DNA of 64,000 nucleotides from Escherichia phage vB_EcoM_FT, in sequence record MT682710.1. One strand, written 5' to 3'. The position numbers and the translations under genes are program-made. How positions within the stretch are numbered: position 1 is the stretch's first letter; every line of letters starts with the position of its first letter. A model generated the notes under the pieces. It made no database searches. It was not told the origin of the DNA and saw nothing but the letters and a program-made list of their open reading frames with translations. Of this stretch, positions 19,121-20,187 are shown piece by piece.

Positions 19121-19981
19121 TTACACCGCCATTTTTCCTTTAATTGGCGGATGAGATACATAGTTGTTAAGAACAAAATTATGCGGCTTTGCAAATTGAC
19201 TCAACCAAAATACCTGCGATTCTGTGTCCCATTCATCAAATTCATCTGGAAATTTTAATTGTAATTCGCATAAATCCATAGGTTCACGACGTAAAATTTC
19301 TTTACATTGTTCTACGTGATTCATATAGATATGAGTATTACCACCAGAAAATATCAAATCTCCCGGAATAAGATTACACATCTTAGCTACAATATGAACT
19401 AACGCAGCATATGATGCAATATTAAATGGAAGGCCGAGAAAAACATCTACTGATCGTTGATACCACTGCAAATCTAAATAGCCATTACGCACATTAAACT
19501 GATAGAACATATGACAAGGTGGTAATGCCATATATTTAAGTTCAGCTGGATTCCACGCCGACACAATTTGACGCCTATCATTTGGCAGTTTTTTAATACG
19601 ATCAATAACTTCTATAATTTGGTCTACACCACCAAAATCACGCCACTGTTTTCCATAAATTGGACCAAGTTCACCGCTATGGTATCCTAAATCTTTTGCT
19701 TGATTTTCGTAATTTTCATCCCAAACTGTTTTGCCTTGGATTAACGAATCATGTTGAATTAATCGCAAATCATTGACATTTGTGCTTCCCGATAAAAACC
19801 ATATTAGCTCAGCAATGCAAGCTTTCCAGGCGAGCTTCTTAGTTGTTACTGCAGGAAAACCTTTAGTTAAATCCCAGCGTAATTTAGTACCGAACAAAGC
19901 AATTGTTCCTGTGCCTGTTCGGTCATCGGTTTCGTAGCCATTTTCCAGGATATCTTTAATTAAAAATTGGTATTGTTTCAT
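19121..19981 (-). CDS. td: thymidylate synthase, intronless
   Basis: Start at MKQYQ gives 286 aa as in T4 Td; continuous coding, no group I intron. Confidence 0.95.
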
Positions 19982-20187
19982 TAGTTCATCCAAGAATATG
20001 TAGAAGGATATTTGGCAAAGTTAGGCTTATATCCTAATTTAACCATTTGTTTTGCTTTGCGAGTAAATCCTAAAGAACGCTCACCTTTAAGATATTGTTT
20101 TGGTGTCATAGGCCCTTGATGCATCTGCCGGCAAATAAAAAGGGCCATAGCATTAGGAACATCCTTAACTTTTAATTTATTGCTCAT
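19981..20187 (-). CDS. small basic hypothetical protein intercalated between frd and td
   Basis: 68 aa; ATG overlaps frd stop (ATGA), stop overlaps td ATG (TAATG). Confidence 0.55.

Follow-up and report, generated by a model that had tools for sequence, protein, structure and literature searches.

ORF68, a small basic gene at the frd/td junction of Escherichia phage vB_EcoM_FT and its T4-like relatives

Introduction

In phage T4, the genes for dihydrofolate reductase (frd) and thymidylate synthase (td) overlap directly through an ATGA stop/start motif, as reportedly described by Purohit and Mathews in 1984. In this study, a stretch of 64,000 nucleotides (nt) from Escherichia phage vB_EcoM_FT (sequence record MT682710.1), hereafter the window, was examined at this junction, where an open reading frame (ORF) of 68 amino acids (aa), hereafter ORF68, lies between the two genes. 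We consider ORF68 to be one of two optional small genes of the frd–td junction in T4-like phages, the other being a member of PHROG 1928 (phrog_1928), and estimate the probability of this full explanation at about 0.7.

The junction of the window shares with the T4 overlap the same operon, the C-terminus of Frd, the N-terminus of Td and a termination–reinitiation architecture. It differs in that the restart codon is that of ORF68, that a second overlap, TAATG, leads to td, and that the T4 form is a minority allele. The PHROG 1928 cassette resembles ORF68 in occupying the same junction, in having short repeats of that junction on either side and in being optional. However, it encodes an unrelated 115-aa protein, has its own Shine-Dalgarno sequence and leaves a 45-nt spacer before td; furthermore, it tracks the divergence of its flanks, with no recent sweep, and in other genera it is located upstream of ORF68.

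In T4-type phages, small genes are gained, lost and replaced between conserved genes through recombination at short shared sequences, as PeSL–ORFan cassettes (Arbiol et al. 2010, PMC2839356; Comeau et al. 2014, PMC4122927). ORF68 is likewise a small gene between conserved T4-like genes, but it has no flanking promoter-plus-stem-loop module, its shared sequence is just a stop/start motif of 5–8 nt, and it lies inside a core nucleotide-metabolism operon and not in a hyperplastic region. As with the T-even homing endonuclease genes (seg, mob, and I-TevI in td), an optional insert is nearly identical in diverged hosts whose flanks differ, and ORF68 adjoins the td intron and segG loci; it differs from those genes in its lack of an endonuclease domain, its length of 68 aa and a distribution independent of the td intron. 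Lambdoid morons carry their own promoter and terminator. ORF68 resembles them as a dispensable extra gene between conserved genes, whereas it has neither promoter nor terminator and relies on the host operon. The literature searched contained nothing specific on the ORFs of this junction, only the PeSL papers being relevant; no description of a three-allele junction, a derived T4 overlap or a sharp signature of inter-genus transfer was found there, and we regard these points as being of modest specialist interest.

Results

Structure of the frd–td junction

The window is a segment of a Tequatrovirus genome. Over bases 19700–20500, its identity was 100% with Escherichia phage HEMP5 and 97–99.5% with many more T-even relatives. 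The frd, ORF68 and td genes are all encoded on the minus strand. The frd gene (20184..20765; PF00186, E = 3.9e-19; phrog_316) starts at the ATG at 20765 and stops at the TGA at 20186..20184; its N-terminus, MIKLVF, is that of T4 frd, and its length of 193 aa and its C-terminus, ...TESVYK, are identical to those of T4 frd. The program-made ORF list begins this gene further upstream, at the ATG at 20792. The td gene (19121..19981), which was read directly from the sequence and matched PF00303 over its full length (E = 6.4e-94), is intronless and encodes 286 aa from the ATG at 19981..19979 to its end at 19121. ORF68, a member of PHROG 9550 given in the ORF list and matched by phrog_9550, occupies 19981..20187 when the stop codon is counted, with the ATG at 20187..20185 and the stop TAA at 19983..19981. 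The frd stop and the ORF68 start overlap in ATGA (20187..20184), and the ORF68 stop and the td start overlap in TAATG (19983..19979). Only one copy of ORF68 is present, and a search of the window revealed neither a second ORF68 nor a relocated PHROG 1928 gene.

In the T4 reference (RefSeq NC_000866), the td end at 145112 and the frd start at 145109 form a direct ATGA overlap within the junction sequence ...GTATATAAATGAAACAATACC. The junction of the window is longer than that of T4 by exactly 206 bases, and the 5-nt direct repeat AATGA bounds this block. Reading of the sequence and alignment with the T4 junction placed the left copy of the repeat at 20184..20188 (minus strand), where it holds the ATGA overlap, and the right copy at 19978..19982 (minus strand), where it holds the TAATG overlap. 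A first-pass annotation of the window had stated the direct overlap in T4 and had noted genes of 193 and 286 aa flanking a lysine-rich 68-aa ORF through both overlaps. The T4 coordinates and sequence and our reading of the window agreed with each of these observations; ORF68 has 10 lysine and 3 arginine residues versus 1 aspartate and 1 glutamate, with a pI of 10.3.

Junction alleles in Tequatrovirus

The alleles of the junction were surveyed in Tequatrovirus using the T4 junction and the RB14 insert as queries. In summaries of the searches, approximately 363 records carried the phrog_1928 gene only (e.g., T2, T6, RB3 and RB14), approximately 130 carried ORF68 only (e.g., this window and ACG-C40), and approximately 30 had an empty, T4-type junction (e.g., T4, RB55, JEP6 and F1). 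A second set of figures from the searches gave ~133 records for ORF68 and ~34 for the T4-type junction. The empty junction was thus the rarest allele, at ~30 of ~510 records. When the T2 and T6 junctions were checked directly, PHROG 1928 was present and ORF68 was absent; T4 also was without ORF68. ORF68 is not peculiar to this genome, as it is present and annotated in the RefSeq T-even genomes ACG-C40 (NC_019399), pSs-1 (NC_025829), fPS-65, Sf21 and others. Annotation in reference T-even genomes was what the first-pass annotation had named as refuting its reading; this applies to the RefSeq T-even genomes listed, though not to T4, T2 or T6.

The PHROG 1928 junction gene, RB32ORF229c, is located at the same frd–td junction site as ORF68, and td in this allele follows the spacer with its own AAGG Shine-Dalgarno sequence. 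The cassette is flanked by a direct repeat, AAATGAAA, in RB14 (L008, 1820-2212), T2 (L015, 2698-3110) and T6 (L016, 5925-6336), and the RB14 record itself remarks that the junction gene is "flanked by 9 bp repeat". Recombination across the AAATGAAA repeats of T2 and T6 gives exactly the GTATATAAATGAAACAATACC of T4. Furthermore, T4, F1 and JEP6 have the phrog_1928-linked haplotype at the 5' end of td. Because of these two observations, the frd/td overlap of T4 is best explained as a deletion derivative.

Individual variants of the cassette were also seen. In RB14, an extra A lengthens frd by 11 codons into the phrog_1928 cassette. In phage 132 (L011, 1710-2126), the cassette is apparently broken by a small indel, and a 39-aa ORF and an ORF on the opposite strand are annotated there; this may be a decaying allele. 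The label of PHROG 1928 as a homing endonuclease in the AlbertHofmann record received no support from Pfam, PDB or homologue searches and was rejected.

The junction in other T4-like lineages

ORF68 was located directly 5' of td, with an overlap of 1–4 nt, in Marfavirus, Kanagawavirus CIP9, Serratia phage 4S, Dhakavirus JS10 and JS98, and the metagenome contigs L025 and L026. In Marfa, CIP9, 4S and the two contigs, the gene order was frd – phrog_1928 (one or two copies) – ORF68 – td, with joins that were mostly 4-nt overlaps. The genes between frd and ORF68 in these lineages belong to phrog_1928, the family of the junction gene of T2, T6 and RB14, and ORF68 was always the td-abutting gene in T4-like lineages carrying both small genes. 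Tandem phrog_1928 paralogues were observed between frd and ORF68 in CIP9 (L005, 2326-3004), L025 (2332-3004) and L026 (850-1525), the junction genes of all three being chained by overlaps of 4 nt or slightly more.

Because other T4-like genera carry PHROG 1928 and ORF68 together, ORF68 appears to have long occupied the td 5' flank. Most parsimoniously, the fuller layout, which persists in at least six lineages besides Tequatrovirus, would be old and the Tequatrovirus alleles would be reduced versions of it. The first-pass annotation had proposed a precise gene insertion; the 206-bp block placed exactly at the T4 overlap and the signature of recent lateral transfer described below agree with that proposal, whereas T4 was the wrong baseline for it and ORF68 is probably a long-standing component of the region.

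Distant homologues of ORF68, in phAPEC8 and the contigs L012, L013 and L014, were found among small unknown ORFs (early-ORF arrays) away from td. A Tad2-like gene lies about 4 kb from the homologue on L012; it was too far away and too isolated and was not used as evidence.

Expression of ORF68 and td

On the minus strand, neither a sigma-70-like promoter nor a terminator-like hairpin was found in 19981–20187 or directly adjoining it, and no Shine-Dalgarno sequence was found upstream of the ORF68 AUG. The corresponding sequences of frd and of the upstream 81-aa ORF are AGAGGA and AGGAGA. For td, a weak, putative Shine-Dalgarno-like motif, GGATGA (19986..19991, minus strand), was read upstream of the gene within the ORF68 codons W66–M67–N68 (TGG ATG AAC), 5 nt from the td AUG. 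The features expected of coupled cistrons, namely an overlapping stop/start on the same strand with no promoter or terminator between, were found at both ATGA and TAATG. Since ORF68 has no Shine-Dalgarno sequence, internal promoter or terminator, its translational coupling on both sides can reasonably be inferred. ORF68 would be read from a polycistronic frd–td mRNA, on which ribosomes reaching the frd UGA would terminate and then reinitiate at the AUG that overlaps it; the translation of ORF68 thus probably depends on ribosomes terminating at that UGA, as does that of td in T4. The TAATG overlap and the internal GGAUGA would then hand ribosomes on to td.

This layout can also be read as tying ORF68 to thymidylate synthesis, either as a partner or regulator of Td, Frd or the deoxyribonucleoside triphosphate synthetase complex, or as a leader cistron that sets td expression. 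Indeed, ORF68 invariably abuts the td 5' end with an overlapping stop/start in at least seven diverged Straboviridae lineages, among which the number of genes from frd to ORF68 varies, and the Shine-Dalgarno-like GGATGA of td is supplied by the 3' codons of ORF68. However, ORF68 is missing from T4, T2, T6 and about 75% of Tequatrovirus genomes, which nevertheless make Td, and the phrog_1928 allele gives td its own spacer and AAGG sequence. In phAPEC8-like phages and metagenomic contigs, moreover, the distant homologues reside in the small-ORF arrays off td, and the adjacency to td in Straboviridae may be inherited synteny. We therefore consider such a role unlikely.

Divergence of ORF68 and its flanks

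The window was compared with Dhakavirus JS10 gene by gene. The nucleotide identity was 80.8% for frd and 74.7% for td, with synonymous divergence (dS) of 1.07 and 3.9 (saturated), respectively, whereas ORF68 showed 98.1% identity and a dS of 0.08, a value based on just ~40 synonymous sites. The ORF68 of JS98 matched that of the window at 205 of 207 positions. Within Tequatrovirus, the mean pairwise divergence among seven carriers was 1.7% for ORF68 versus 8.1% for frd and 9.0% for the td 5' end, i.e., ORF68 was approximately 5-fold less diverse than its flanks. As a control, phrog_1928 diverged in step with its flanks between RB14 and Mosigvirus AlbertHofmann (87% versus 87% and 81% identity).

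The edges of the shared tract were sharp. On the left, the edge was at most ~6 nt from ATGA, the frd 3' ends being genus-specific up to AAATGA. On the right, the tract extended 15–55 nt into td and included a distinctive td 5' haplotype, CAATTTTTAATTAAAGATATCCTGG... (19925..19978, minus strand, from mismatch maps), common to Dhakavirus JS10. An alternative haplotype, CAAGATTTAATTAAAGACATTTTTG, was found in genomes without ORF68 and in the recombinant SP21535, in which the crossover lies just ~15 nt into td. These results constitute a strong signature, in sequence comparison, of recent lateral transfer of the ORF68 cassette between genera. The allele with ORF68 alone has moved recently between Dhakavirus and Tequatrovirus and into diverse Tequatrovirus backgrounds, taking with it about 15–55 nt from the start of td. 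By default, this would have occurred by recombination in co-infection, through one crossover in td and another at the stop/start microhomology, after which the linked flanks would have eroded. Hitch-hiking of ORF68 on the homing of the I-TevI intron was insufficient as an explanation, since carriers of ORF68 occur with and without the intron (4 of the 8 examined were without it).

The same pattern could arise if ORF68 were a minimal selfish cassette with a homing-like drive, in which a nuclease acting in trans breaks the ORF68-less junction and repair copies ORF68 with minimal co-conversion of the flanks; the ORF68 protein may then contribute DNA targeting. The near-identity of the cassette across genera with both flanks diverged, the tight edges of the tract on either side, an alternative cassette at the same site, each of the two being bordered by short junction repeats, and the position of the region between the known SegG and I-TevI homing loci are all in its favor. 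Against this, ORF68, at 68 aa and lacking a nuclease motif, falls below the size of every known homing endonuclease family, no candidate for the trans-acting enzyme was identified, and phrog_1928 gave no nuclease signal in Pfam, PDB or homologue searches. The presence of ORF68 is also independent of the I-TevI intron, as half of the carriers examined show, and a young, single-origin indel haplotype with flanks eroded by ordinary recombination would yield the same diversity pattern. A drive of this kind is accordingly improbable. In its most specific form, ORF68 would be a 206-bp gene-drive cassette without its own nuclease, copied exactly into the stop/start junction of diverged T-even genera. 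A phage nuclease acting in trans, to which the basic ORF68 protein might give direction, would first cut the empty or alternative junction; this would account for the near-identical cassette, the genus-specific flanks up to AAATGA and the rivalry with PHROG 1928 at the site, and we regard it as very improbable.

Conservation and annotation of ORF68

ORF68 matched the phrog_9550 hidden Markov model with E = 1.3e-45, its residues 1–68 aligning with profile positions 1–68 of 68, and the phAPEC8 homologue matched the same model (E = 3.2e-39). A tblastn search with ORF68 recovered 237 phage records, of which ~133, from Tequatrovirus and Dhakavirus, were at least 95% identical. The identity was ~80% in Klebsiella Marfavirus-like phages, 68% in Kanagawavirus CIP9, 60% in Serratia phage 4S and ~43% in the unrelated phAPEC8-like Phapecoctavirus group; overall, the family was recovered at 33–44% identity in unrelated phages. 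Against the orthologues of Marfa, CIP9 and 4S, at which synonymous sites were almost saturated, the ratio of nonsynonymous to synonymous divergence (dN/dS) was 0.13–0.17. Just ten further clusters, all of stand-alone proteins of 70–96 aa, emerged when 1.84 billion representative proteins were searched with a profile.

Because of the full-length phrog_9550 match, the 237 records and the low dN/dS, ORF68 is more than a chance reading frame, and the possibility of unconserved noise raised in the first-pass annotation was effectively ruled out. To judge from this conservation, ORF68 is a genuine, conserved small accessory gene. The idea that ORF68 is non-coding noise or an RNA element that is open by chance, for which one may cite its shortness in an AT-rich genome, its missing annotation in JS98 and JS10 and its merely truncated 42-aa version in ACG-C40, is effectively refuted by the dN/dS value with nearly saturated synonymous sites, by the protein family in unrelated phages, and by the lack of both an Rfam match above noise and excess RNA structure (fold z = 0.12, which is unexceptional).

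Apart from its function, ORF68 and its family are already known as public annotation. In approximately 130 T-even genomes, GenBank and RefSeq label it as "hypothetical protein". The ACG-C40 and IME339 records annotate the 42-aa version, a truncated C-terminal fragment, and in the RefSeq records of JS10 (L007, 3001-3207) and JS98 (L022, 4215-4416) ORF68 is unannotated and appears as a 202-nt gap. Specific product names for junction ORFs were also encountered, namely "DUF4858", "flagellar biosynthesis protein", "putative homing endonuclease" and "glucose-1-phosphate adenylyltransferase", in the records MZ502379 (Shinka), NC_054944 (PYPS2T), MZ501047 (AlbertHofmann) and OR125554 (BW-1). Pfam, PDB and fold searches gave no support to these names. 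For ORF68, "DUF4858" (Shinka record) was rejected, as no match to that Pfam model was obtained with any of 23 members even at E ≤ 10, and "flagellar biosynthesis protein" was rejected as unsupported.

The ORF68 protein

The product of ORF68 is a protein of 7.9 kDa with 13 lysine and arginine residues versus 2 aspartate and glutamate residues. An earlier AlphaFold2 model built with 14 close homologues was poor (pLDDT 56). With 23 diverse sequences, a model with a pLDDT of 83.5 was obtained, having helices at residues 13–24, 29–38 and 43–49; its N-terminal tail is basic and its C-terminal one extended. The residues conserved family-wide were K4, K6, P11, R20, K34, G40, A45, M48, L51, G52, Y53 and P55, of which K4, K6, R20, K34, G40, G52, Y53 and P55 are of the basic or structural kind.

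Domain searches gave no match in Pfam (the 23 members, E ≤ 10, except for scattered noise), NCBIfam or PDB sequence profiles, and a fold search with the model found no structural analogue. No catalytic domain of a homing endonuclease (GIY-YIG, HNH, LAGLIDADG, His-Cys box or EDxHD) was found in ORF68 by Pfam, PDB or fold searches. In our view, ORF68 is unlikely to be an enzyme or to be indispensable for thymidylate synthesis; its role would be that of a dispensable host-interaction or accessory factor. Within the overall explanation, we tentatively propose, at somewhat less than even odds, that the protein could be an accessory factor of early infection that binds nucleic acid or an acidic partner.

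Neighboring features

An 81-aa ORF (phrog_3183; window 20765-21010, minus strand) overlaps the frd start through TAATG and has the strong Shine-Dalgarno sequence AGGAGA given above. At its position T4 has no gene but a 71-nt gap between frd.1 and frd, while T2, T6, RB14 and ACG-C40 have the gene; it is a second small gene of the frd operon that T4 lacks. The td intron (I-TevI) is not found in the window and is present in T4, T6, ACG-C40, LH2 and SP21535. At 18837-18883 (minus strand), the nrdA.2-like gene (DUF5496) and nrdA.1 (DUF4326) overlap by 47 nt, as in T4; in the ORF list, the start given for nrdA.2 is a TTG that precedes the Pfam match by 4 codons.

Discussion

Two unrelated small genes occur at one junction, singly in Tequatrovirus and together in other T4-like genera, and we regard ORF68 as one of two optional genes of this site. 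Several points weigh against this explanation. Its polarity, i.e., both genes being ancestral and then deleted versus repeated insertions at a hot spot, is decided by parsimony, which is no proof. The allele counts were summarized from searches without a genome-by-genome tally, and the low dS of ORF68 was calculated from few synonymous sites. Furthermore, the left edge of the transferred tract, at most ~6 nt from ATGA, is not easily explained by plain homologous recombination, and the translation and coupling of ORF68 are deduced from sequence only.

Taken together, the interpretation in the first-pass annotation was only partly right, while the underlying observation was confirmed. At the population level, the idea of a precise mobile insertion proved partly correct.

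Viewed as a gene, ORF68 is a further uncharacterized small phage protein already present in databases. It bears an unusually clean mark of recent inter-genus transfer, the edges of which are at the stop/start motif, and is therefore a tractable case for the movement of very small cassettes in T4-like genomes; its spread poses the question of whether selection (e.g., counter-defense) or drive is responsible. In addition, the junction presents three natural modes of td initiation, namely coupled to frd, coupled to ORF68 and through its own Shine-Dalgarno sequence, which form a ready system for studies of coupling. For the T-even phages as a group, the textbook frd/td ATGA overlap of T4 is atypical and probably derived by deletion, and most members have a small gene there.
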